Origin: a virus
DNA: 64,000 nucleotides
Reading direction: 5' to 3' (one strand)
Virus record (IMG/VR): IMGVR_UViG_3300031963_000020
Coordinates: 84,341-148,340 of that record
The notes under the pieces are model-generated. The model did no database searches. It was not told the origin of the DNA and saw only the letters and a program-made list of their open reading frames with translations. This document shows positions 9,301-25,447 of the stretch, one piece after another. A program made the translations under genes and the position numbers. Every line of letters begins with the position of its first letter. Positions within the stretch are counted from its first letter, which is position 1.

Positions 9301-10827
9301 AACTATTCAACATTTAGTTCCTCGTTGGCAACAGTTGATGCAGGACAAACTACTCGTATTGATAATCTAGCAAGTTTGACCAGTTCGTATGCAATTAACG
9401 CAACTATTCAAGGTCAACTTGCGGGAGTAGTTTCTTCTTCAACACAAGTTAAGCCACTTCTTCCTGGTGGAACAGTTAGTGCATCAAATCAAGTTGATAT
9501 CACCGCAACTACGGGATACTCTACATTTAGTTCATCACTAGCAACAGTAGATGCAGGACAAACTACTCGTATTGACAACTTGGCGAGTTTGACCAGTTCG
9601 TATGCAATCAACGCAACAATACAAGGACAACTTGCTGGTGTTGTTTCTTCTTCAACACAAGTAAAACCATTACTTCCTGGTGGTACAGTAAGTGCTTCTG
9701 GTCAAGTAGACATTACAGCAACTACTGGATACTCTACATTTAGTTCATCACTAGCAACAGTAGATGCAGGACAAACTGCTCGTATTGATAATTTAGCAAG
9801 TCAAACAAGTTCCTACGCAATTAATGCAACTATTCAAGGGCAACTTGCTGGTGTTGTTTCTTCTTCAACACAAGTTAAGCCACTTCTTCCTGGTGGTACA
9901 GTAACCTCATCAGCACAATATCCTGGGTGGGTAACCGCATCAAGTCAAATTGACTATAATAGTATTCAAAATAAGTTAAGTGGGGTAGTATCGTCATCAA
10001 CACAAATTGTTCCGCTATTACCAGCAGGAACTATTAGTGCGTCATCACAAGTGGCATTAAATGCTATTACTGGAGTTACTTTTAGTAATTCCTCATTCTA
10101 TTTCCCAAATAATTTACGAGTTGAAGGAACATTAACCGCACAAGAAATTAATACAGAATATGTTTCTTCATCGATTATTTATGAATCTGGTTCTACCAAA
10201 TTTGGTGATACAGCTGACGATGTAATGAGTGTTACTGGTTCTATTCGTGTCTTGGGTGGAAATATTAGTGGGTCGTTTATTGGATTGGTTTCTTCATCGG
10301 CACAAATAGACTATAACTCTATACAAAATAAATTATCCGGTGTTGTTTCTTCATCAACACAAGTTCAACCACTGCTTCCAGTTGGAACTGTTAGTAGTTC
10401 CGCACAATATCCAGGATGGGTAACTTCGTCAACACAAATTGTTTGGTCATCAGTAAACTACAACGGAGGTATCGTCAGTAGTTCGGCACAAGTAAAACCA
10501 TTACTTCCTGATGGAACCGTATCAAGTTCAGCACAATATCCTGGTTGGGTCACCGCATCAAGTCAGGTAACAATTACTGGTATATCAGGATTGGGTGCTA
10601 ACGTAGCGACATTCTTGGGAACACCAAGTTCTGCAAATTTAGCAACAGCAGTCACAGATGAAACAGGTACGGGTGCGTTAGTATTTGCAGGAAGTCCAAC
10701 ATTAACTGGTACGGCTACTGCAAATAACATTGTAATGTCTGGGTCGCAATTCTCAGGAATAGTATCAGGTAGTGGATTACAATATAGATTAGTGGTTCCA
10801 GTCGGAACTAACCAATACGCAACCTAA
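6319..10827 (+). CDS. Large Ser/Thr-rich repeat virion (fibre) protein, 1502 aa
   Basis: 71-aa (213-nt) tandem repeats (e.g. at 9340, 9553, 9766), [14 protein letters not shown] repeats, central non-repetitive domain; C-terminus shared with ORF 10941. Confidence 0.7.
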   Translation: MPIIAGQITGSALSGSLNYTFLSNIPSGIVSGAAQVAANLPAGTVSSSGQVDYNSITNKLSGVVSSSTQIQPLLPDGTVSASNQVDITATTNYSTFSSSLATVDAGQTTRIDNLASLTSSYAINATIQGQLAGVASSSAQVKAYLPADTVSSSGQVDITATSGYSTFSSSIATKNDTQDVSIGALNAATSSYAINATIQGQLAGVVSSSTQVKPLLPGGTVSSSAQYPGWVTASSQIDVRNTTGIATIATTGSNTFNGTQTVTGSLFTSGSNSLVGSTTLSGSLVVSGAAITSTPNIQIYGDTEFTGYAKFNPVTSNIDTSISASYIYVSGSTQDLYFSQNSAGYNNVTRLRWLESNLYTGLLKGGILTTTTGSTTFNISAGEGIVVTLNASTTQDPYPTIKLVRWDAKTNVPITFSGSAKITYVGLDVAGNVIQQVVPWGSTDINQFDTQINLGVILHSSASISTGAYNAPQISYGAPQKADDFFRSFGPLKVSGHTLQASGSSPSLSIKKTAGTSYREGSNYANNPNHPNTVTEESDITISKIYRYYISGSTPVIDTGASGSGYPTLDNQNRVDTATGLLTSIGLSNWSIQRVFWVPGSPTNAFIVYYGNTAYSTLLNAVNAINTEPFTEAPDTAANAVFIGYIVIQGGSNRDLLNATDCTIIQAGLFRNIAGVGSGGTQPVATTLAGLSDVGISSPAIGDLLVYTGATWNNTKSLNGSYSLTGSLATNDGITAITINATAVSASLSGSGAGVFGVNYNTLSNIPAGIVSSSTQVQPLLPGGTVSSSAQYPGWVTSSAQIDITATTGYSTFSSSLATVDAGQTTRIDNLASQTSSYAINSTIQSQLAGVVSSSTQVKPLLPDGTVSSSAQYPGWVTASSQIDYNNITNKLSGVVSSSAQVVPLLPGGTVSSSGQVSLTATSEYSTFSSSIATKNDLQDVSINALNAATGSYAINATIQGQLAGVVSSSAQVKPLLPGGTVSSSGQVDITATTNYSTFSSSLATVDAGQTTRIDNLASLTSSYAINATIQGQLAGVVSSSTQVKPLLPGGTVSASNQVDITATTGYSTFSSSLATVDAGQTTRIDNLASLTSSYAINATIQGQLAGVVSSSTQVKPLLPGGTVSASGQVDITATTGYSTFSSSLATVDAGQTARIDNLASQTSSYAINATIQGQLAGVVSSSTQVKPLLPGGTVTSSAQYPGWVTASSQIDYNSIQNKLSGVVSSSTQIVPLLPAGTISASSQVALNAITGVTFSNSSFYFPNNLRVEGTLTAQEINTEYVSSSIIYESGSTKFGDTADDVMSVTGSIRVLGGNISGSFIGLVSSSAQIDYNSIQNKLSGVVSSSTQVQPLLPVGTVSSSAQYPGWVTSSTQIVWSSVNYNGGIVSSSAQVKPLLPDGTVSSSAQYPGWVTASSQVTITGISGLGANVATFLGTPSSANLATAVTDETGTGALVFAGSPTLTGTATANNIVMSGSQFSGIVSGSGLQYRLVVPVGTNQYAT

Positions 10828-15177: not shown

Positions 15178-15843
15178 ATGAGTGTACAAATGTTTCGTGA
15201 GTTACAAGAACTAATCGATACGGCACAACACATAGTTATTGCTGTTATTGTGGCCGAAGGGTGTGAAAATTACAAGGGTAAATTCTTGACTGATTTGGAA
15301 AATCAAATCAAGGGTCAACAGAACCCAGTACATTTACACACCATTTGTTATCGTGAAGAACCAATTATGTTTCCACGCCCAATGACACAAGCGGTGTATT
15401 ATTTCGCACCAAAAAATTATACACCACTTTTTTATCGTCAAGGTGCAAGAGCGATGGACGCACCAATAGATATTGTAACGGCCATCAAAATGAGGCAGGG
15501 GATGTCCTATGCAGAGGCTGCATACGGTGCGGATAAGATGGAAAGTTACGAACGAACAGAAAATTTGGTAAAGAACGAAGATACATCAAAGTTTCCTTCA
15601 TTGTTTCAACAAGCACGTAATTTTGCAAAAGAAATGTGGCACGCAGGTAAAAATGCAGCAGTTGGATTACCTGTATTAGTAGATGCGGATATTGCATACA
15701 ATAGATTTGAAACGTGTCGTGGTTGTGAATTTTTAACACAAGATAGTTTTCGTTGTGAAAAATGTGGGTGTTTTATGAAAACAAAAACACAAATTGCAAC
15801 TTCTTCATGTCCAATTGGAAAATGGCACGCTATAACGCAGTAA
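15178..15843 (+). CDS. Protein with C-terminal Cys-rich domain (DUF6171-like) and possible degenerate thioredoxin-like N-terminus
   Basis: R...CRGC...CEKCGCFMKTKT.....CPIGKW. Confidence 0.55.
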   Translation: MSVQMFRELQELIDTAQHIVIAVIVAEGCENYKGKFLTDLENQIKGQQNPVHLHTICYREEPIMFPRPMTQAVYYFAPKNYTPLFYRQGARAMDAPIDIVTAIKMRQGMSYAEAAYGADKMESYERTENLVKNEDTSKFPSLFQQARNFAKEMWHAGKNAAVGLPVLVDADIAYNRFETCRGCEFLTQDSFRCEKCGCFMKTKTQIATSSCPIGKWHAITQ

Positions 15844-15878: not shown

Positions 15879-15888
15879 TTAGAATACT

Positions 15889-16620
15889 ATGTTAAGATTT
15901 TTTCCGTATAGAACATTTAGTTCGTCATTTGCATTCACGGGGTCCGCAGCACAAACTGCATCATTCGTGCTGTCTGGAACCACCGCATCGTTTTCACTAA
16001 CTGGTGGTGGTCCAACTGGTCCTGTTGGGCAAACGTCGGTAGTACAAGGTATTACAGGTGTATCAGGACCAACAGGTATAGGTCCAACAGGTCCACGTGG
16101 CACCACAGGTCCAACAGGCCCAAGATCAGCAACAGGTCCAACAGGACCAACTGGTATTACAGGACCAACTGGCGCTACAGGAGCAACTGGAGCTGCATCA
16201 ACTGGTCCAACAGGACCAATAGGAGTTTCAGGTAGTACAGGTCCAACAGGACCAACAGGTGCAACAGGTATTATCGGTATCACAGGTGCAACTGGTCCGA
16301 CAGGAGCAACAGGTCCAAGTGGTCCAACAGGTATTCAAGGTATTGCAGGGCCGCAAGGTGTTACTGGTGCTACGGGTCCAACTGGTGCAATTGGTGTCGC
16401 AGTATCAGGTATCCAAGGTCCAACAGGTGTAACAGGGCCGTCAGGTCCATTTGGTTCTTCTGGTCCACAAGGTACAATTGGTGTTACAGGTCCAACAGGA
16501 CCAACAGGTGCACAAGGAACCGCATTTACAGGGCCAACAGGTGCAACAGGTGCAACTGGTGCTACGGGTCCAACAGGAGCTGTGGGAGCTACTGGTCCAA
16601 CTGGTGCGAACACACCATAA
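15889..16620 (+). CDS. Collagen-like protein with N-terminal FFP motif
   Basis: MLRFFPY..SSSFA..TASF leader, then about 200 aa of G-X-Y to the C-terminus. Confidence 0.8.
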
Positions 16621-16635
16621 TAGAGAGAAAGTGTT

Positions 16636-18279
16636 ATGACGTTTAAATTTTTTCCGTTCGGTGTACCAACTACTAGTTCGTTTGCAATAGGAGTCGGAGT
16701 AACAGCTACCGCATCTATTGCAATTAATAGTGGTTCTGCGTTCTCTACGGCGTCATACGCACTGGGTGGGTCCACGGGTGCCACAGGTCCAAGTGGTCCG
16801 CAAGGAGCAACAGGTCCAACAGGTCCAACGGGTCCAACAGGCATTTCTGGATCAACTGGTGTTTTGGGTACTTCTGGTTCAACAGGACCACAAACGTCAG
16901 GGTCAACAGGTCCGACTGGACCAAGTGGTATTACTGGAGCAACAGGTCCAACAGGACCAACTGGTATTACGGGTTCTACGGGTGTAATAGGTATTACAGG
17001 ACCATCTGGTATTCGTGGTGCAACAGGTGCAACTGGAGCAACAGGTCCAACAGGCCCAACAGGTAGTGTTGGTATAACTGCTGGTATCATAGGTGTATCA
17101 GGTGTTACAGGCCCAACTGGTTCATCTGGTCCAACTGGTGTACAAGGAAGCACGGGTCCAACTGGTGTGGGGCCAACTGGAGCAACAGGTGCAACGGGTC
17201 CATCTGGTTCAGCAGGACCAACAGGACCAGTGGGACCAACAGGAGCAACTGGTGCAATCGGACCATCTGGATCTTCTGGTCCAAATACATTCGGAATAGT
17301 TGGTATAACTGGAGCAACTGGTCCTACTGGTGTTATCGGACCAACGGGACCACAAGGAAACGCTGGTCGAGCTGTATTTTTCATAACAGGATCATGTAAT
17401 CAAACACATTCCGATATCACCGTTCCTCACAGTGACGTTGCAGCAAGTCATACTGATATCGCAGCAGCACACACAGATACTACCATTAATGCATCACATA
17501 GTGACATTGTTACCACAACACCAGCATCACATACAGATAATACTACACCATTCGTAAATACGACTATTAACGCATCACATAGTGACACAACAATTAATGC
17601 ATCACATAGTGATATTGCGCATAGTAATATTACAATTAACGCCGCACATACTGATAATACCACACCATTTAATAATATCGCATTTACTAATATTGCAAAA
17701 TCACATACGGATATTTCACACAGCAATATATCACATACGAATATCGGAGCAGCACATACAGATAATACTACACCATTTAATAATATCGCGTTTAGTAATA
17801 TTGCATTCACAAATACCACTATACCATTTAGTAACATAGGATTTAGTAATTCGTATACTCCACATTCAAACATTGCTAAAGGTGCAGTTCATAAAGACGA
17901 TTACGGTCCACCAGCACATACAAATAGTACAACACCACATAGTAATATTGCATTCTCAAACACAGGATTCTCTAACTCGTATACTCCACATACAAACGTG
18001 GGTCATACGGATATTGCGTTCTCTAATACAGGATTTAGTAATAGTTATACTCCACATACTAATATTGGTTCAGCTCACACCAACACTACAATCAACGCAT
18101 CACACACAGATAATTACACGGCACATCAAAACGTAGCGCATGGAGATATACCGTTCGTGAATAGTTATACACCGGCACAATGTTCGCAATGTCCTGGTGG
18201 AGATCCGTCTGAATGTGATTCGTTCTGTGAATGTTATCCAAACTGTGGTTGCTTCGGTAATACGTGCATCGGTATATAA
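16636..18279 (+). CDS. Collagen + 38 x [HF]-x-[DN] repeat + 8-Cys tip protein (zipper chain C)
   Basis: MTFKFFPFG leader; G-X-Y to about aa 244; repeat array aa 258-509; C-terminus CSQC...CDSFCEC..NCGC....C. Confidence 0.85.
17407..18162 (+). repeat. [HF]-x-[DN] motif array (38 motifs, spacings 5/7/9/11 aa)
   Basis: Hand-parsed from translation ([21 protein letters not shown] ... HGDIP FVN). Confidence 0.9.
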
Positions 18280-18305
18280 TAAATGTTTATAATAGGGAAT
18301 AAATA

Positions 18306-19082
18306 ATGCCAGGTCCAACACATACAAATATAGGCCACTCCGATATAGCGTTTGAGAATGTCTACGCTGCGCATACTGATTTTACACAAAATCCGGCACA
18401 CACTGACAATACCACACCATTTAATAATATTGCAGCAGCTCATACCAATATCGCTCATAGTAATCAGGCATTTCTTAATACTTCATTTAGTAATATAGCA
18501 AAATCACACACCAATGTATCACATACAAATATTGGGCATACAGACGGTACGGCAGCACATACAGACAACTATTCACCAGCATCGCATTTAGATAATACTA
18601 GTGCACACTCAAATATCGCAGCAGCTCATACAAATATTGCACATAGTAATATAGCAACATCACACACAGATATATCTCACTCAAATATATCTCATACTAA
18701 CATCGGTGCATCACACACTGACAATACCACACCATTTAACAATATTGCGTTTAGTAATATTGGGTTCGTAAACACCACTATTCCACATACTAATATTGGT
18801 CACACTAATATAGGTGCAGCGCATTCAGATAATACAACACCAGCAGATCACAGCGATATCGCATTTAGTAATATTACGATTAACGCAAGTCACACGGATA
18901 TTACAATCAACGCAAGTCACACGGATATTGCAGCATCACATACCGATACTACCATTAACGCATCACACACGAATATAGTAAGTACCACTCCAGCTTCACA
19001 TACCGACAGTACAACACCATTTACAAATAGTACTACACCACACTCAAATGTTGCGGCCGCTCACAGTAACGCATTCCTATAA
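18306..19082 (+). CDS. Pure [HF]-x-[DN] repeat protein, 38 motifs (zipper chain D, mirror partner of 16636)
   Basis: Almost entirely HTN/HTD/HSN/FSN units; AGGGA SD-like element upstream. Confidence 0.85.
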   Translation: MPGPTHTNIGHSDIAFENVYAAHTDFTQNPAHTDNTTPFNNIAAAHTNIAHSNQAFLNTSFSNIAKSHTNVSHTNIGHTDGTAAHTDNYSPASHLDNTSAHSNIAAAHTNIAHSNIATSHTDISHSNISHTNIGASHTDNTTPFNNIAFSNIGFVNTTIPHTNIGHTNIGAAHSDNTTPADHSDIAFSNITINASHTDITINASHTDIAASHTDTTINASHTNIVSTTPASHTDSTTPFTNSTTPHSNVAAAHSNAFL

Positions 19083-19088
19083 TACACT

Positions 19089-19952
19089 ATGTCGCAATTT
19101 TTTCCACTAGGTACACCAACAACTGCAAGTACAGCACTTATCAGTAGTTTAGCATTTACCGCAACGTATGCTGTGAATGTGAATGTGTTGACAGCATCAT
19201 ATGGTCCTGGACCAACTGGACCACAAGGTGATAAAGGACCAACAGGACCACAAGGTGCAACTGGATTGGCAGGGTCAGGTTCTACAGGACCAACGGGCGC
19301 AACAGGTCCAACTGGGCTAACTAGTTCAGGTCCAACAGGTCCAACAGGACCGCAAGGTGTAATCGGTATTACTGGTATTACAGGCCCAACAGGTGTCACA
19401 GGTTCTACAGGCCCAACAGGTCCAATAGGAATTACTGGTGTAATTGGTGTTACAGGTATTTCTGGTGTAACTGGTATTGCTTCATTTACTTCGGGTTCCA
19501 CAGGCGCTACTGGGCCAACTGGAGCAACAGGTGCTACTGGTGTGGTGGGTATTACTGGTGCAACTGGTATTATTGGAATCACAGGACCAACAGGATTGAC
19601 TAATTTGGTGGGCATTACAGGTCCAACAGGTCCAATAGGATTACCAACCACGGGTTCTACAGGTCCAAGTGGTCCACAAGGAGCAACTGGTGTTGTAGGT
19701 ACTGGTGGTGTTTCTGCAGGAGCGGCGGCATCTGGAGTCATCGGTATTACGGGTATTACTGGTGTACAAGGTACCACAGGACCGCAAGGAAGTCGTGGTG
19801 TGGACGCCGAATGTCCAGCAGGATTTGTAACCTGTACGGAAGGGGCTCCGTCATCGGGGTCAAATACATATACAAACCCAAATAGTAGTATATATTCTGT
19901 GGTTTGTGCCGCAAGACCAGTAGGTTGTTTAGGAACATTTACGTGTGTATAA
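19089..19952 (+). CDS. Collagen-like protein with FFP leader and 5-Cys C-terminal domain
   Basis: MSQFFPLG leader; G-X-Y to about aa 237; ECPAGFVTC...VVC....GC....TCV. Confidence 0.8.
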
Positions 19953-20024: not shown

Positions 20025-21218
20025 ATGGCTAAAGCACCTGGTAGTATTTGGGTAGATGGTGAAACCTTTAGATTTATTGACGCAACTGGAAACGAGTACT
20101 ATTACACTGGTACTGCGGGGTCTAGTCCTGCGGGAGCTAAGGCTGGTTCAATTTGGGTAGACGGAAATGATTTTCATTATATTTCTGCTACTGGTGTTGA
20201 CCGTACAATTGCATACACCGATTTGGGTGTAGCAGCGGGATCAAAACCAGGTTCAGTATGGGTGCAAACCACATTCTGGCAATGGATATCATCGGCAGGA
20301 AACGCTCGTCGTGGTCACACCGACGTAACAGCAGCACACACCGACAATACCACCCCAGCATCTCACACAGATATTGCATTCGTTAATACTACAATTAACG
20401 CGGCACACACAGATACTACAATCAACGCAAGCCATACAGATATAGCAAAAGCACACACGGATAACACAACACCAAATAGTCACACGGACAACACTACTCC
20501 GTTCAATAATATTGCGTTCGTTAATACTACAATCAATGCCGCTCACACGGATAATACAACGAACGCAAGCCATACAGATATAGCAAAAGCACACACGGAT
20601 AACACAACACCAAATAGTCATACTAACAGCTATACTCCACATAGTAATGTCGCACACACCAATATTGGTGCAGCGCACACGGACAACACTACTCCGTTTA
20701 ATAATATCGCATTCACTAACACCTATATTGGTAACAGTCACACCAACAGTTATACTCCACACAGTAATGTCGCACACACCAATATTGGTGCAGCGCACAC
20801 GGACAACACTACTCCGTTTAATAATATAGCATTTACCAATTCATATACAGGTAATAATCACACTAACAATTACACACCACACACCAATATCGGTCACAGT
20901 AATATCGGTCATACTAATATCGGATTTAGTAACATAGCATTTAGTAATATTGGATTTACCAATACAACTATCAATGCATCACACACAAATATCAGTCATA
21001 GTAATATTGGTGTATCGCATACAAATATCGGTCATAGTAATGTTGGATTTAGTAATTCGTATACTGGACACACAAACATTGCACATAGTAATATAGGCGT
21101 ATCGCATACAAATATTGGACATAGTAATGTTGGATTTAGTAATTCGTATACAGGATTTGTAAATTCTTACACACCACAAAATCACACAAATTCGTATCAG
21201 GGTGGTCCTTCAGCCTAA
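20025..21218 (+). CDS. Three GS[IV]WV repeats + 44 x [HF]-x-[DN] repeat protein (zipper chain A)
   Basis: N-terminal 97 aa with PGSIWVDG/AGSIWVDG/PGSVWVQ; array from aa 98 (nt 20316). Confidence 0.85.
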   Translation: MAKAPGSIWVDGETFRFIDATGNEYYYTGTAGSSPAGAKAGSIWVDGNDFHYISATGVDRTIAYTDLGVAAGSKPGSVWVQTTFWQWISSAGNARRGHTDVTAAHTDNTTPASHTDIAFVNTTINAAHTDTTINASHTDIAKAHTDNTTPNSHTDNTTPFNNIAFVNTTINAAHTDNTTNASHTDIAKAHTDNTTPNSHTNSYTPHSNVAHTNIGAAHTDNTTPFNNIAFTNTYIGNSHTNSYTPHSNVAHTNIGAAHTDNTTPFNNIAFTNSYTGNNHTNNYTPHTNIGHSNIGHTNIGFSNIAFSNIGFTNTTINASHTNISHSNIGVSHTNIGHSNVGFSNSYTGHTNIAHSNIGVSHTNIGHSNVGFSNSYTGFVNSYTPQNHTNSYQGGPSA

Positions 21219-21238: not shown

Positions 21239-22144
21239 ATGAATCATAGTAATTCGACAACACCAGCATCACATACGAACATCGGTGCATCACATACTAA
21301 TATCGGGTTTAGTAATGTGGGGTTTAGTAATAGTTATACTCCATTTTCAAATGTTGGGTTCGGTAATGTCAATGCATCACATACTGATATTGGATTTAGT
21401 AATGTGGGATTTGCAAATTCTTACACACCATTTAGTAATGTAGGGTTTTCCAATAGTTACACACCAAATTCACACACTAATATTGCACACAGCAATATTG
21501 GTCATAGTAATATTGGATTTAATAATATTGCGTTTAGTAATATCGCATTTGGTAATATTGCAAGAACACATACCGATAACACTACAAATGCAAGTCATAC
21601 CAACATTGGTCATACAAATATTGGTGCTGCACACACGAATAACACCACACCATTTAATAATATAGCGTTTAGTAATATTGCGAAGGCACACACAGATAAC
21701 ACTACAAATGCAAGTCATACCAATATCGCGCATACAAATATTGGTGCTGCACATACGGATAACACCACACCATTTAATAATATAGCGTTTAGTAATATTG
21801 CGAAGGCACATACGGACAATACTACAATTGCCTCACACACGGACAATTACACTCCGCATACAAACACTACAATTAATGCGGCACATACCGACAATACAAC
21901 ACCAGCATCACATACGGATATCGCACATACTAATATTGCTGCAGCACATACGGACAATACTACTAACGCAGCCCATACGGACAATTACACCCCGCATACA
22001 AACACTACAATTAATGCCGCACACACGGATACCACAATCAACGCAAGTCATACCGACATTGCGCACACTAATACAACAATTAATGCTGCACACACGGATA
22101 ACACCACACCACATAGCGACCAACCAGTATTTGTTGGTCCATAA
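21239..22144 (+). CDS. Pure [HF]-x-[DN] repeat protein, 44 motifs (zipper chain B, mirror partner of 20025)
   Basis: AAGGA SD at 21227-21231; ends HSDQPVFVGP. Confidence 0.85.
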   Translation: MNHSNSTTPASHTNIGASHTNIGFSNVGFSNSYTPFSNVGFGNVNASHTDIGFSNVGFANSYTPFSNVGFSNSYTPNSHTNIAHSNIGHSNIGFNNIAFSNIAFGNIARTHTDNTTNASHTNIGHTNIGAAHTNNTTPFNNIAFSNIAKAHTDNTTNASHTNIAHTNIGAAHTDNTTPFNNIAFSNIAKAHTDNTTIASHTDNYTPHTNTTINAAHTDNTTPASHTDIAHTNIAAAHTDNTTNAAHTDNYTPHTNTTINAAHTDTTINASHTDIAHTNTTINAAHTDNTTPHSDQPVFVGP

Positions 22145-22209: not shown

Positions 22210-23529
22210 ATGACTATTGAATTAGAACCAGTTGGTGTAGTATGTAATTTAAGTTGCCCGTATTGTTACGAACATCCCATGCGAGATGCGGGTAATTTCC
22301 GACATAAAACATATTCCGTTGAAAAAATGTTAGAAGGTCTTGCCAAAGAAGGTGGTAATTTTACCCTCTTTGGTGGTGAACCATTATTAACTGATATTGA
22401 CGATTTAGAAACTATTTTTAAGTGGGGGTTTGACCGATATGGATTTAATGGTATTCAAACAAATGGTGTTTTAATTACTGACCGCCACATAGAAATGTTT
22501 AAGAAGTACAGAGTTCACGTCGGAATATCACTTGATGGTCCTGACGAAATGAACGACACGCGTTGGGCAGGGTCATTAGAAAAGACCAGAGAGGCTACCC
22601 GCAAGTCATTTGAAGCTATTAAAAAGTGTCTTGACAACAAGCTCTCACTTGGTTTAATTATTACTATCCATAAGAAGAACGGATTACCAAAATATCGTGA
22701 ACGTTTCAAGGCATGGATTAAAGAACTTCAGTCGTGGGGTGTTGATGGAGCAAGACTTCATCCACTAGAGATTGACCATAGTTCTGTTGGTGAAACATTA
22801 GCTCTTACACCAGAACAAAATATTGAGTTCCTATTAGATATGTGGGACTTTGAAATCAGTGAACTAAATGTTCCTGGTAAGAAATCATTTCAGTTTGATA
22901 TCTTCCGTGACGTAGAATATATGTTGCGTGCAGACGATGCAAACGCAACCTGTACATTTATGACTTGTGACCCATATACCACGCATGCGGTGCAAGGTAT
23001 TGACTCGCAAGGTAATAAAGCAAACTGCGGTCGTGGTAACAAAGAAGGTATTAACTGGATTAAAGCCGATGTTGACGGATTTGAACGTCAGATGGCACTA
23101 TATAATACACCACAAGAACATGGTGGATGTCAGGGGTGCCGATTCTTTATTATGTGTAAGTCACACTGCCCAGGTACAGGTGCAGATATGGACTGGAGAA
23201 ATAGAACGGATACCTGTATGAATTGGAAGGTAGCGTTTAGTATCTATGAACGAATGATGGTTGAACGTGGTGAGATGCCATTATCTCTAGACCCAAAATT
23301 AAAGAGATATGAAGATATTTTGATGTATGGTTATAGTAGAGGTGCAGAACTTAGATTAGAACACATTAAAAAGTATCTTGACCCAAATATTGGATTTGAT
23401 ATTGAAAGATACATCCAATCATATTTGATGAACCAAGCTATGGGTGGACACAAGCCACACGCAGACCATACAGATGAAACAGGAAGATACGCATTAGAGT
23501 TTAAAGAGAAGTACGGATATTTACCTTAA
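22210..23529 (+). CDS. Radical SAM enzyme with SPASM-type C-terminal domain (peptide/protein maturase-like)
   Basis: CNLSCPYC (CxxxCxxC), FGGEPLL, QTNG, GISLDGP; C-terminal CTFMTC...NC...CQGCRFFIMCKSHCP...C; tail HADHTD. Confidence 0.92.
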   Translation: MTIELEPVGVVCNLSCPYCYEHPMRDAGNFRHKTYSVEKMLEGLAKEGGNFTLFGGEPLLTDIDDLETIFKWGFDRYGFNGIQTNGVLITDRHIEMFKKYRVHVGISLDGPDEMNDTRWAGSLEKTREATRKSFEAIKKCLDNKLSLGLIITIHKKNGLPKYRERFKAWIKELQSWGVDGARLHPLEIDHSSVGETLALTPEQNIEFLLDMWDFEISELNVPGKKSFQFDIFRDVEYMLRADDANATCTFMTCDPYTTHAVQGIDSQGNKANCGRGNKEGINWIKADVDGFERQMALYNTPQEHGGCQGCRFFIMCKSHCPGTGADMDWRNRTDTCMNWKVAFSIYERMMVERGEMPLSLDPKLKRYEDILMYGYSRGAELRLEHIKKYLDPNIGFDIERYIQSYLMNQAMGGHKPHADHTDETGRYALEFKEKYGYLP

Positions 23530-23547
23530 TATAAAGAGGATACGTAG

Positions 23548-23946
23548 ATGATACCAGGATTACACGCAGACCACGTTGACACATCGGGTGCATATGGTCA
23601 AAAATTTGAAGTCGTAAAAGACTTGTTAGAAAAAGGAATGTTGAAAGAAATTCCAGAAGAATTCCGTGATAAAGGAAATACTTCCGAAGAAGTTCCGGTT
23701 ATTACTAATTCACAAACAGTTGTTGGTAATCAGCAATCGGGATGGGATATGTCTCGTGACCATGCCGACCACGTTGACGAAACTGGTCGTTATGCACAAT
23801 CGTATATGGAACGATTTGGTTCGGATTCCTTAAATAATAACGAAATTTCACAAGGAACTACAGAACAACAGCAAGATACTGGTAATTCTTGGAAGTCTTT
23901 CTTGAAGAAGATTATTGCAGAAGAAAAGAGTAAGTTGAAGGTTTAA
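23548..23946 (+). CDS. Small protein with two HADHVD motifs
   Basis: HADHVDTSGAYG and HADHVDETGRYA match the tail of the upstream radical SAM; GAGGA SD. Confidence 0.7.
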   Translation: MIPGLHADHVDTSGAYGQKFEVVKDLLEKGMLKEIPEEFRDKGNTSEEVPVITNSQTVVGNQQSGWDMSRDHADHVDETGRYAQSYMERFGSDSLNNNEISQGTTEQQQDTGNSWKSFLKKIIAEEKSKLKV

Positions 23947-23965: not shown

Positions 23966-25447
23966 ATGCAAAGAATAAAGCATGTCTTGCCTGATTGGAC
24001 TCGGGTGCAGTGGACTTCTATAGAAAATAGAAACAAATACGAACCTATCATTGCGTCTATCAATAACGCATGGAAACAGATTGAACGTATGTCGGTTGTT
24101 CACGATATTCGTCCATCTTCACTAGATATATTATCACCAGAAGAACTCATAAATTTAACTGCGGAATACGAAAAACATGGAGTACTCGTAGTTCCTATTG
24201 GTAAAGAAGGAAAAGCAGGAACTTACTCGTCTACAAGTACACCATATAATGGTGGTGATTACAATATTCGTGTTGTATTCACAAAGTCTGAAGCTATAGC
24301 AGATGAATGGTTTAATATCTGGCAAGCAGAACCCCGCATTCGTGACCGTGAGGCTGGTCGTTTACTTGGGTATCCTACCTGCTGCACCAATCATTTTATG
24401 AAGTATTGGGTAGACCAGGAATTTGTTGATACTACGTGGACGATGGCAGCGGAAAATATGCAGTTAAATGATGACGATGAAACGCATCGTACTATTCATA
24501 TTAAGGCAGATACTCCACCTGAAGCAAACATAATGTGGCGTTGGCAAGGTGTACGATTGGTATCACATCTTCCGTGTTCGTTTGATTGCAAGGCAACAGA
24601 AGAACTTGGTATGAAGATGGCAGAACTTGGTCGTACACTTGGGTTTGAAAAAGAAGTAAATTGGATATATGAATTACTTTCGTGGCCTGTTGAATGGTCA
24701 GCACTGCATGGTATCGCAGAAATCCGTACACCAATCAACAAGATTTCATCCAGAACTGATATGACCCCGTGGAAGTATGTGGTACAGAAGCATGCACACG
24801 AATATCCTATTGATGGTATGTCTGGTATAACGTATCCGTATAATCAAAAGAAAATTAAAGTCAAACCCGTCACAAAAACTATCTCGTTCGCTAAATCTCT
24901 TGAAGATACTTCCGTATGGGAAGAAAACGGATTTAGTAATAAGGAAGCTATGGATCACTTCCACCAAGTTATCATTGACGCAATCGGGGATATGAAATAT
25001 ATTCCTGGTGGTAATGTCCTCGACCTCGGTTGTGGAAATGGTGTCTTGTTAGGTCGTGTAGTTGGAGACAGATTTGATCTCATCCCACACGGTGTTGAAG
25101 CAGACCGTCAACGTTGTATGTCCGCAGCAACTACCATCCATTGGGGTGTCTTTACAATGGGTAGCATCTTTGACCTTAATACGTGGAAGGAAGATACATA
25201 TAGTTTGGTACTTTTGATGCCAGGCAGACTTCTTGAAACCACACGTGTAGTATCAGAACAAGTGCGTAAGCAACTCTATGACAAGACAGACCTTGTTCTT
25301 ATCAACCTAACTTGTGATTGGACACAACAATATGGCTCGATTGAGAATATTATGAAGGTCACAGGTCTTGACCAAGAATGGGAACCAGCAGGTAAGTTAA
25401 TCCATCGTCAAGATGATATGGCACAACTTTTCAAGCGTAAGGTGTAA
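23966..25447 (+). CDS. DUF483-like domain fused to class I SAM-dependent methyltransferase
   Basis: GRLLGYPTCCTNHF and HLPCSFDC in the N-terminal part; VLDLGCGNG motif I in the C-terminal part. Confidence 0.65.
   Translation: MQRIKHVLPDWTRVQWTSIENRNKYEPIIASINNAWKQIERMSVVHDIRPSSLDILSPEELINLTAEYEKHGVLVVPIGKEGKAGTYSSTSTPYNGGDYNIRVVFTKSEAIADEWFNIWQAEPRIRDREAGRLLGYPTCCTNHFMKYWVDQEFVDTTWTMAAENMQLNDDDETHRTIHIKADTPPEANIMWRWQGVRLVSHLPCSFDCKATEELGMKMAELGRTLGFEKEVNWIYELLSWPVEWSALHGIAEIRTPINKISSRTDMTPWKYVVQKHAHEYPIDGMSGITYPYNQKKIKVKPVTKTISFAKSLEDTSVWEENGFSNKEAMDHFHQVIIDAIGDMKYIPGGNVLDLGCGNGVLLGRVVGDRFDLIPHGVEADRQRCMSAATTIHWGVFTMGSIFDLNTWKEDTYSLVLLMPGRLLETTRVVSEQVRKQLYDKTDLVLINLTCDWTQQYGSIENIMKVTGLDQEWEPAGKLIHRQDDMAQLFKRKV

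Follow-up and report, generated by a model that had tools for sequence, protein, structure and literature searches.

Triceptide synthases such as HaaB, YhhB, HtkB and ChlB are radical S-adenosylmethionine (SAM) enzymes of the SPASM type that crosslink repeated aromatic-X-X motifs, the His motifs HAA, HNR and HTK included, according to the accessible part of PMC11499958. In the antiphage system HXS, as far as the accessible part of PMC13128918 describes it, the target that two radical SAM enzymes mature is a protein with five His-x-Ser repeats rather than a small peptide, and the small accessory protein HxsD binds one of these enzymes, HxsC. The Thermus phages Cumys and phiMa carry a three-gene 'rSAM module' for which DNA modification was suggested (PMC11437467, again in its accessible part). 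Here we describe a locus that resembles each of these, on 64,000 nucleotides (nt) of a large tailed phage (IMG/VR record IMGVR_UViG_3300031963_000020, positions 84,341 to 148,340; hereafter the window): a radical SAM/SPASM enzyme encoded next to fibre proteins made of His/Phe-x-Asp/Asn arrays ends in a tail with the tandem motif H-x-D-H-x-D, and the next open reading frame (ORF), of 132 residues (ORF132), carries the same motif twice.

The enzyme is 45-51% identical to those of Cumys, phiMa and phiLo (45% over 97% of the length for the Cumys/phiMa module), and as in that module it is accompanied by a DUF483 protein and a third protein. In Cumys and phiMa the DUF483 gene also follows the enzyme, and the upstream protein of unknown function proves in our analysis to be an H-x-D array; in contrast to the window, with ORF132 and four array proteins, these phages have no small gene between the radical SAM and DUF483 genes. 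Neither the arrays nor the enzyme tail is mentioned in the accessible part of the account of the module (PMC11437467). HXS differs from the present locus in being a bacterial defence system built on H-x-S (PMC13128918, accessible part), and the triceptide systems differ in that the accessible part of PMC11499958 names no motif of His with Asp or Asn at X3, and in that the presumed substrates here are large virion proteins. These three papers were the only relevant ones found, and no description of an H-x-D repeat/radical SAM system, or of a radical SAM enzyme or synthase bearing a substrate motif, was found in the literature searched, which left subscription journals largely uncovered.

The enzyme C-terminus reads ...KPHADHTDETGRYALEFKEKYGYLP (as a longer stretch, ...PHADHTDETGRYALEFKEKYGYLP), with HADHTD at residues 417-422 (nt 23458-23475). 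ORF132 has HADHVD at residues 6-11 (nt 23563-23580), in the context LHADHVDTSGAYGQKF (residues 5-20), and again at residues 72-77 (starting at nt 23761), in the context DHADHVDETGRYAQSYMERFG. A preliminary description of this DNA had reported one H-x-D-H-x-D at the enzyme end and two in the next ORF; the strings and their coordinates are confirmed, but the enzyme extends 5 residues beyond the '...KYG' at which it had been made to end. Translated in six frames, the window has 127,996 residues, and these three H.DH.D strings are the only ones among them, against ~0.02 expected per frame. In BLASTP comparisons the last 47 residues of the enzyme match copy 2 of ORF132 with 17/36 identities (E 2e-9) and copy 1 with 8/16 (E 1e-4), so that the resemblance exceeds chance. 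Tail and copy 2 have 13 of 20 residues in common, encoded by the same codon in 3 of the 13, and are identical at 34/60 nt. This low codon sharing indicates that the copies are ancient and are held by selection at the protein level rather than being a DNA repeat; a recent DNA duplication or gene conversion between them is ruled out by the codon usage.

The tail is a trait of the enzyme family. A search gave 1587 homologues at E <= 0.001, and the best 120 were examined in a 122-sequence alignment together with two Thermus phage enzymes. The conserved core ends near residue 393, and in the columns beyond it the tail residues are retained in 90 (H417), 89 (D419), 83 (H420) and 80 (D422) sequences. 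Among the 87 homologues of at most 57% identity, 43 have a tandem H-x-D-H-x-D after the core, 6 have two or more H-x-D, 6 have one, 5 have an extension without H-x-D and 27 have no extension; in the window clade (n=33) 32 have the tandem, one has a single H-x-D and the remaining classes are empty. Retention of the motif in homologues had been set beforehand as a test, and with its presence in 55/87 distant homologues and in 12/12 close loci the absence that would have spoken against the link was not seen. The density of H-x-D per 100 residues is 8.36 in the extensions vs 0.065 in the cores. The commonest tail units are HGDHTD (33), HGDHYD (11) and HGDHWD (11), and all six single-motif tails carry a degenerate HGDYTR, in which the second His has become Tyr and the second Asp Arg (a form seen in P0073, P0075, P0105, P0111, P0115 and P0121). 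Tails with H-x-D are found in 19/29 scorable diverse viral loci (15 with two or more, 4 with one; 10 have none).

The tails vary in extent. The Cumys enzyme also terminates in HGDYTDHGDAPHGDHWDG, while the phiLo enzyme (L001, 9001-10449) has a tail of ~90 residues with 9 units; from one-unit tails to array-bearing enzymes such as those of P0246 and phiLo the forms make up a continuum. The P0246 enzyme (567 residues) has 14 H-x-D within its first 90 post-core residues, and the P0038 and P0082 enzymes likewise carry whole arrays at their C-termini. In the otherwise diverged viral enzymes of L120, L121, L124 and L144 a five-unit tail recurs, HGDHWDAP(D/E)G..H.D......HGD.G.T..HGDS, which is a second tail type beside the HADHxDxTGxY of the window clade.

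ORF132 is a real, conserved gene, specific to the phage clade of the window. An ORF of 118-127 residues with two H-x-D-H-x-D lies between the enzyme and the DUF483 gene in all 12 viral loci with an enzyme 74-89% identical to that of the window; all 12 keep the enzyme tail too, and several are near-identical to each other. The gap between the enzyme gene and ORF132 is 18 nt and contains an AAGAGG ribosome-binding site. Homologues in the database number 84 (83-143 residues), 81 of them with two motifs; the others are one N-terminally cut fragment and two forms, P0206 and P0207, without copy 2. Conservation is complete or almost complete in three segments, LHADHxD..GAY...F, HADHxDETGxY and the C-terminal WKxFLxxIxEEKSKL, which are joined by linkers that vary in sequence and length. 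In 64 aligned homologues the invariant residues are L5, H6, A7, D8, H9, D11, G14 and Y16 in copy 1 and W115, K116, F118, L119, I123, E126, K127, K129 and L130 at the C-terminus, and in copy 2 conservation reaches 90% or more at H72, A73, D74, H75, D77, E78, T79, G80, Y82 and G91.

ORF132 had no match in Pfam, in NCBIfam (E <= 0.01; this covers the HxsD model, TIGR03976, its accession taken from the accessible part of PMC13128918) or in PHROGs, nor by tblastn against phage records or in the ESM Atlas. No small H-x-D-H-x-D protein of this kind was found near the enzyme in 40 more distant viral loci, where the sole match was an antisense ORF of odd composition. No longer or fused forms of ORF132 were found, which is weak evidence. 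A long tblastn match of the 439-residue query in L004 and L006 (1596-1611 nt) was considered as an insertion and rejected: with the enzyme ORF stopping at 9311-9314, the remainder of the match falls in the small gene. Prediction of a complex between enzyme residues 1-410 and ORF132 from alignments scored 0.00 in two runs, with the ORF132 fold itself uncertain, and weighs neither way.

In their strict His-x-Asp grammar tails and arrays are alike. Of the 115 His in the window's four fibre array proteins all but one (114) fall in H-x-[DN] (55 HxD, 59 HxN), alternating with 51 F-x-N, and x is nearly always T or S; these triplets, like HAD, HTD and HVD in the tail and ORF132, have the aromatic-X2-X3 form of triceptide substrates (PMC11499958). 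In 22 cellular array ORFs 298/356 His are in H-x-D. Sixty distant tails (3079 residues, about 348 His) contain 317 H-x-D, vs 47.5 expected from composition, and ~91% of their His have Asp at +2, while H-x-E is absent (18.1 expected), H-x-H occurs 3 times (39.3 expected), H-x-N 4 times and HD once (47.5 expected). Of the 92 sequences in which the second-His column is present, 7 carry Tyr there (HGDYTD/R). Together with the F-x-N alternation of the fibres, these replacements fit a position for an aromatic residue, not for a metal ligand.

His and Asp are nonetheless classic metal ligands: 2-oxoglutarate oxygenases bind their metal through an H-x-D dyad, and the T4 gp37 needle binds iron through His motifs. 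It is conceivable, although we consider it unlikely, that the tandem H-G/A-D-H-x-D chelates Fe, Zn or Ni on the enzyme and ORF132, for Fe-S cluster supply or for metal loading of the H-x-D rungs of the fibre. The composition of the tails (D 13.6%, G 13.5%, H 11.3%) would suit such a role, as would the separate conservation of the tandem form with Gly at the first x, a form that does not follow the local arrays. However, the near-absence of H-x-E, H-x-H and HD makes this grammar far stricter than that of known His-rich metal tails, Tyr can stand in for the second His, and in the fibres H-x-D alternates with H-x-N and with F-x-N, in which Phe is incapable of coordinating a metal. Three features, namely the strictness of Asp at +2, Tyr in place of His and the alternation with Phe and Asn in the fibres, favour a motif for chemical recognition over a site for metal.

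The enzyme itself is a member of the radical SAM/SPASM group: it has CxxxCxxC at C12/C16/C19, with no domain N-terminal to C12, and a Cys-rich C-terminal region, and it scores 58.3 bits with Pfam PF04055 (cut-off 29.5). Conserved in 93 sequences are C248, C253, C273, C307, C310, C316, C320 and C336, eight Cys outside the SAM cluster, which we take to be the full ligand count of two auxiliary clusters of the type in anaerobic sulfatase-maturating enzymes (anSME). If so, there is no open cluster site that needs a His or Asp ligand, a further point against a metal-binding tail. In an AlphaFold2 (AF2) model the mean predicted local distance difference test score (pLDDT) is 89.4, with 73 for residues 411-420, 86 for 421-430 and 82 for 431-439 and a helix at 426-435; the tail is thus predicted to be ordered, not disordered. 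The best solved folds in a Foldseek search are anSMEcpe (4k39, E 1.2e-14, template modelling score 0.57/0.68) and the triceptide synthase ChlB (9gm3, E 1.3e-13), with CteB and SuiB as further matches. Like the enzyme, anSMEcpe (PDB 4k36-4k39) has no N-terminal leader-binding domain and has eight auxiliary-cluster Cys, and 4k39 was solved with a bound substrate peptide; it differs in its 17-18% identity in the structural alignment, and the enzyme has an extra helical C-terminal extension, the H-x-D tail and no sulfatase context.

In NCBIfam 53 families matched the enzyme, none of the best 25 reached its cut-off, and HxsB and HxsC were not among these 25. The scores fall short of the cut-offs for the cyclophane synthases YhhB (65 vs 445 bits), AmcB (58.2 vs 425), GrrM/OscB (48 vs 310), FxsB (45.1 vs 370) and XyeB (37.8 vs 450), and for the anaerobic sulfatase maturase model TIGR03942 (71.8 vs 349.45). 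With the curated models among the best 25 so far below their cut-offs, the family can be regarded as unnamed.

The reading that we favour, at a probability of roughly 0.45, is that the tail and the ORF132 copies are specialised substrate-type elements that engage the enzyme, in cis (the tail) and in trans (ORF132). The module H-[A/G]-D-H-x-D would be a specialised copy of the motif that the enzyme itself recognises, aromatic-x-Asp/Asn, continued in the window clade by x-[S/T]-G-x-Y and what appears to be a short helix. As the enzyme has no leader-binding domain and the adjoining proteins are built of one short motif, it must presumably read this motif directly, and its most likely targets are the fibre proteins encoded next to it, with modification at their H/F-x-D/N triplets. 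Our best chemical guess, by analogy, is a three-residue crosslink of the triceptide type, from His or Phe to a C-beta. A flexible tail of the same grammar could meet the same site in cis, where it would itself be modified or, as a pseudo-substrate, would fill or gate the active site, and the two copies of ORF132 in trans could make it a small extra substrate or a bivalent adaptor. It is direct reading of the motif, taken together with a tail of the same grammar, that leads us to see the tail and the ORF132 copies as modified or as pseudo-substrates occupying the site. The fact that 81/84 ORF132 homologues keep both copies while their linkers vary speaks for this reading.

Several observations weigh against it. 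Contact between the tail and the active site is something we infer from the shared grammar. The preliminary description had called the copies tandem versions of the fibre motif; the grammar is indeed common, but they are not the fibre motif simply doubled, since the four fibre proteins of the window contain no tandem H-x-D-H-x-D, no HAD and no HVD. Across 14 viral loci in which a tail and arrays co-occur, Gly is the middle residue in 66% of 58 tail motifs vs 16% of 565 array motifs, and tandem units make up 16 of these 565 (~3%). Being mostly H-G-D and tandem, unlike the local arrays, the tail is no drifting copy of a neighbouring substrate and has its own conserved form, which could have a function of its own. 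Furthermore, the tail is dispensable for the system and is missing in about one third of the enzymes: besides the 27/87 distant homologues with no extension, just 2/18 scorable cellular enzymes have an H-x-D tail, and a tail-less phage clade (L016-L023, enzymes of 383-387 residues) retains the array and DUF483 genes. This clade is nested among tailed relatives, which suggests loss. Its members (e.g. L019 6054-7621) have two extra conserved genes without H-x-D, of 311 and 179-211 residues, between the DUF483-methyltransferase and the enzyme.

The enzyme is also coupled to arrays at the level of the locus. Counting as an array any ORF with at least 5 H-x-D within 60 residues, we found one in 38/40 diverse viral loci whose enzyme ORF is complete, in most cases immediately upstream of the enzyme, and in 15/26 cellular loci of the family vs 3/53 loci of other radical SAM enzymes; these three (L052-L054) are distant family members of 30-35% identity. 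The preliminary description had proposed a link between enzyme and arrays beyond adjacency, and this is supported by the family-wide conservation of the tail, the common grammar and the locus coupling, although overall we regard it as borne out in part. The presumed cellular substrates are mostly peptides of 63-155 residues, some with twin-arginine-like N-termini. Short H-x-D peptides of 93-140 residues with such N-termini are encoded, for example, in L037 (12784-13206) and L041 (12219-12500, 12693-13022), which suggests exported products like peptides that are synthesized ribosomally and modified after translation (RiPPs) rather than virion proteins.

The DUF483 gene is likewise a conserved partner of the enzyme, in the Thermus phages and in most loci, and the tail might serve as a docking handle, a short linear motif that tethers the enzyme, with ORF132 as a two-headed adaptor, to the DUF483-methyltransferase or to the H-x-D ladder of the assembling fibre; we give this only a modest chance. 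The enzyme profile matched 423 protein clusters (50% identity) at E <= 1e-30. From 150 representatives of 50%-identity clusters, 63 without the core-end pattern were dropped, leaving 87 that were scored: post-core H-x-D occurs in 0/15 clearly scored DUF483-fused enzymes vs 28/53 enzymes with a short or no extension, and 14/19 other long extensions are without it. A docking handle would fit these counts, and it would also fit tails being common on viral enzymes with long fibre substrates and rare on cellular enzymes with short peptides, the construction of ORF132 from three conserved short segments with variable linkers, and the precedent of HxsD binding HxsC (PMC13128918, accessible part). However, the contrast between fused and tailed enzymes is confounded by descent. 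In a quick FastTree tree of 78 enzyme cores, one half holds 28 tailed, 9 plain and 0 fused enzymes and the other, tail-poor half all 19 fused, 16 plain and 6 tailed, so that the contrast appears largely to reflect descent. Unfused, tail-less enzymes with a separate DUF483 gene also exist (L016-L023; L125-L127), and ORF132 matches neither HxsD nor any other family model. Natural fusions of the enzyme with DUF483, of 627-998 residues, occur in cellular genomes (L026, L028 and L029, 10001-12061; representatives P0210-P0262).

On the same tree the tail state changes at least 13 times, 6 of these changes being forced by well-supported branches. Such repeated gain or loss, a tail length of 1 to 14 units and the array genes that usually abut the enzyme gene could be explained if the tails had been left behind by read-through fusion to neighbouring substrate genes and ORF132 were one more minor substrate of no particular role. 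We consider this improbable: the array gene normally lies upstream of the enzyme, not downstream, the tail unit occupies the same alignment columns across enzymes at <=57% identity, its commonest forms are its own and unlike those of the arrays, and tail and copy 2 of ORF132 keep their common residues with few common codons.

The features of the locus are collected below. On the + strand, genes for collagen-like proteins are followed by those for the four array proteins, the enzyme, ORF132 and the DUF483 and methyltransferase-like protein. The locus is flanked by tail-fibre, baseplate-hub and tape-measure genes, and then by genes for UvsX, DnaB, ribonucleotide reductase and DNA polymerase.

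Table. Features of the radical SAM/H-x-D locus, in window coordinates.
Feature	Position	Strand	Basis
Radical SAM/SPASM enzyme, 439 residues	22210..23529	+	Pfam Radical_SAM E 1.4e-15
Enzyme tail module HADHTDETGRYALEFKEKYG, residues 417-436	23458..23517	+	alignment columns, AF2
ORF132, 132-residue protein without known family	23548..23946	+	homologues, locus position
ORF132 copy 1 HADHVDTSGAYGQKF, residues 6-20	23563..23607	+	alignment, BLASTP to enzyme tail
ORF132 copy 2 HADHVDETGRYAQSYMERFG, residues 72-91	23761..23820	+	alignment, BLASTP to enzyme tail
ORF132 conserved C-terminal segment SWKSFLKKIIAEEKSKLKV	23887..23943	+	alignment
DUF483 with class I methyltransferase-like C-terminal half, 493 residues	23966..25447	+	Pfam, locus conservation
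DUF483 domain	23966-24880		17 aligned homologues
Four fibre proteins with H/F-x-D/N arrays, presumed substrates	16636-18279, 18306-19082, 20025-21218, 21239-22144	+	motif counts
Collagen-like protein among array proteins	19089-19952	+	Pfam collagen repeats
221-residue protein with Cys-rich C-terminus	15178-15843		DUF6171, phrog_13558
Antisense ORFs overlapping collagen-like genes	15879-19777	-	

The 493-residue partner scores 27 bits with Pfam DUF483 (cut-off 25) and has weak MetW/MTS matches. In its DUF483 domain (AF2 pLDDT 86.5) C139 and C140 (PxCC), C204 and C208 (PCSFxC), D155 and W244 are invariant. Its fold could not be named: Foldseek gave no match at E <= 0.001 (best NleE, E 0.11), and in a wide VIA search the best match, 2guk_B (Z 8.7, root-mean-square deviation 3.2, 106 aligned), and NleE (Z 5.8) were too weak. 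The 221-residue protein, just upstream of the collagen-like genes, matches DUF6171 with 28.2 bits against a cut-off of 27. The long minus-strand ORFs (134-349 residues) are rich in P, V and G and look like by-products of GPT/GAT codon repeats, not genes.

We can also envisage, as a long shot, that the modules of the tail and of ORF132 serve as spare rungs, pairing with the H/F-x-D/N ladder of the fibre and so templating the enzyme on the assembling shaft, and that an intermolecular His-Asp crosslink may even staple the tail or ORF132 covalently to the fibre. If this were true, ORF132 would be a covalent decoration or clamp of the fibre, and the enzyme a substrate-guided, possibly self-consuming virion assembly factor.

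The system of H-x-D array, radical SAM enzyme and DUF483 protein is widespread, yet in the literature searched it figures only as an unexplained 'rSAM module'. If the tail acts as a pseudo-substrate gate or as a tether, this would be a mode of control that we have not found described for radical SAM enzymes that modify peptides or proteins. That tails are enriched on viral enzymes hints that they may help the enzyme to cope with substrates that are large structural proteins. With a conserved motif of substrate type on the enzyme and with the soluble-looking, two-site ORF132, one or two small constructs would be enough to make the chemistry of the family testable, without the repetitive fibres.

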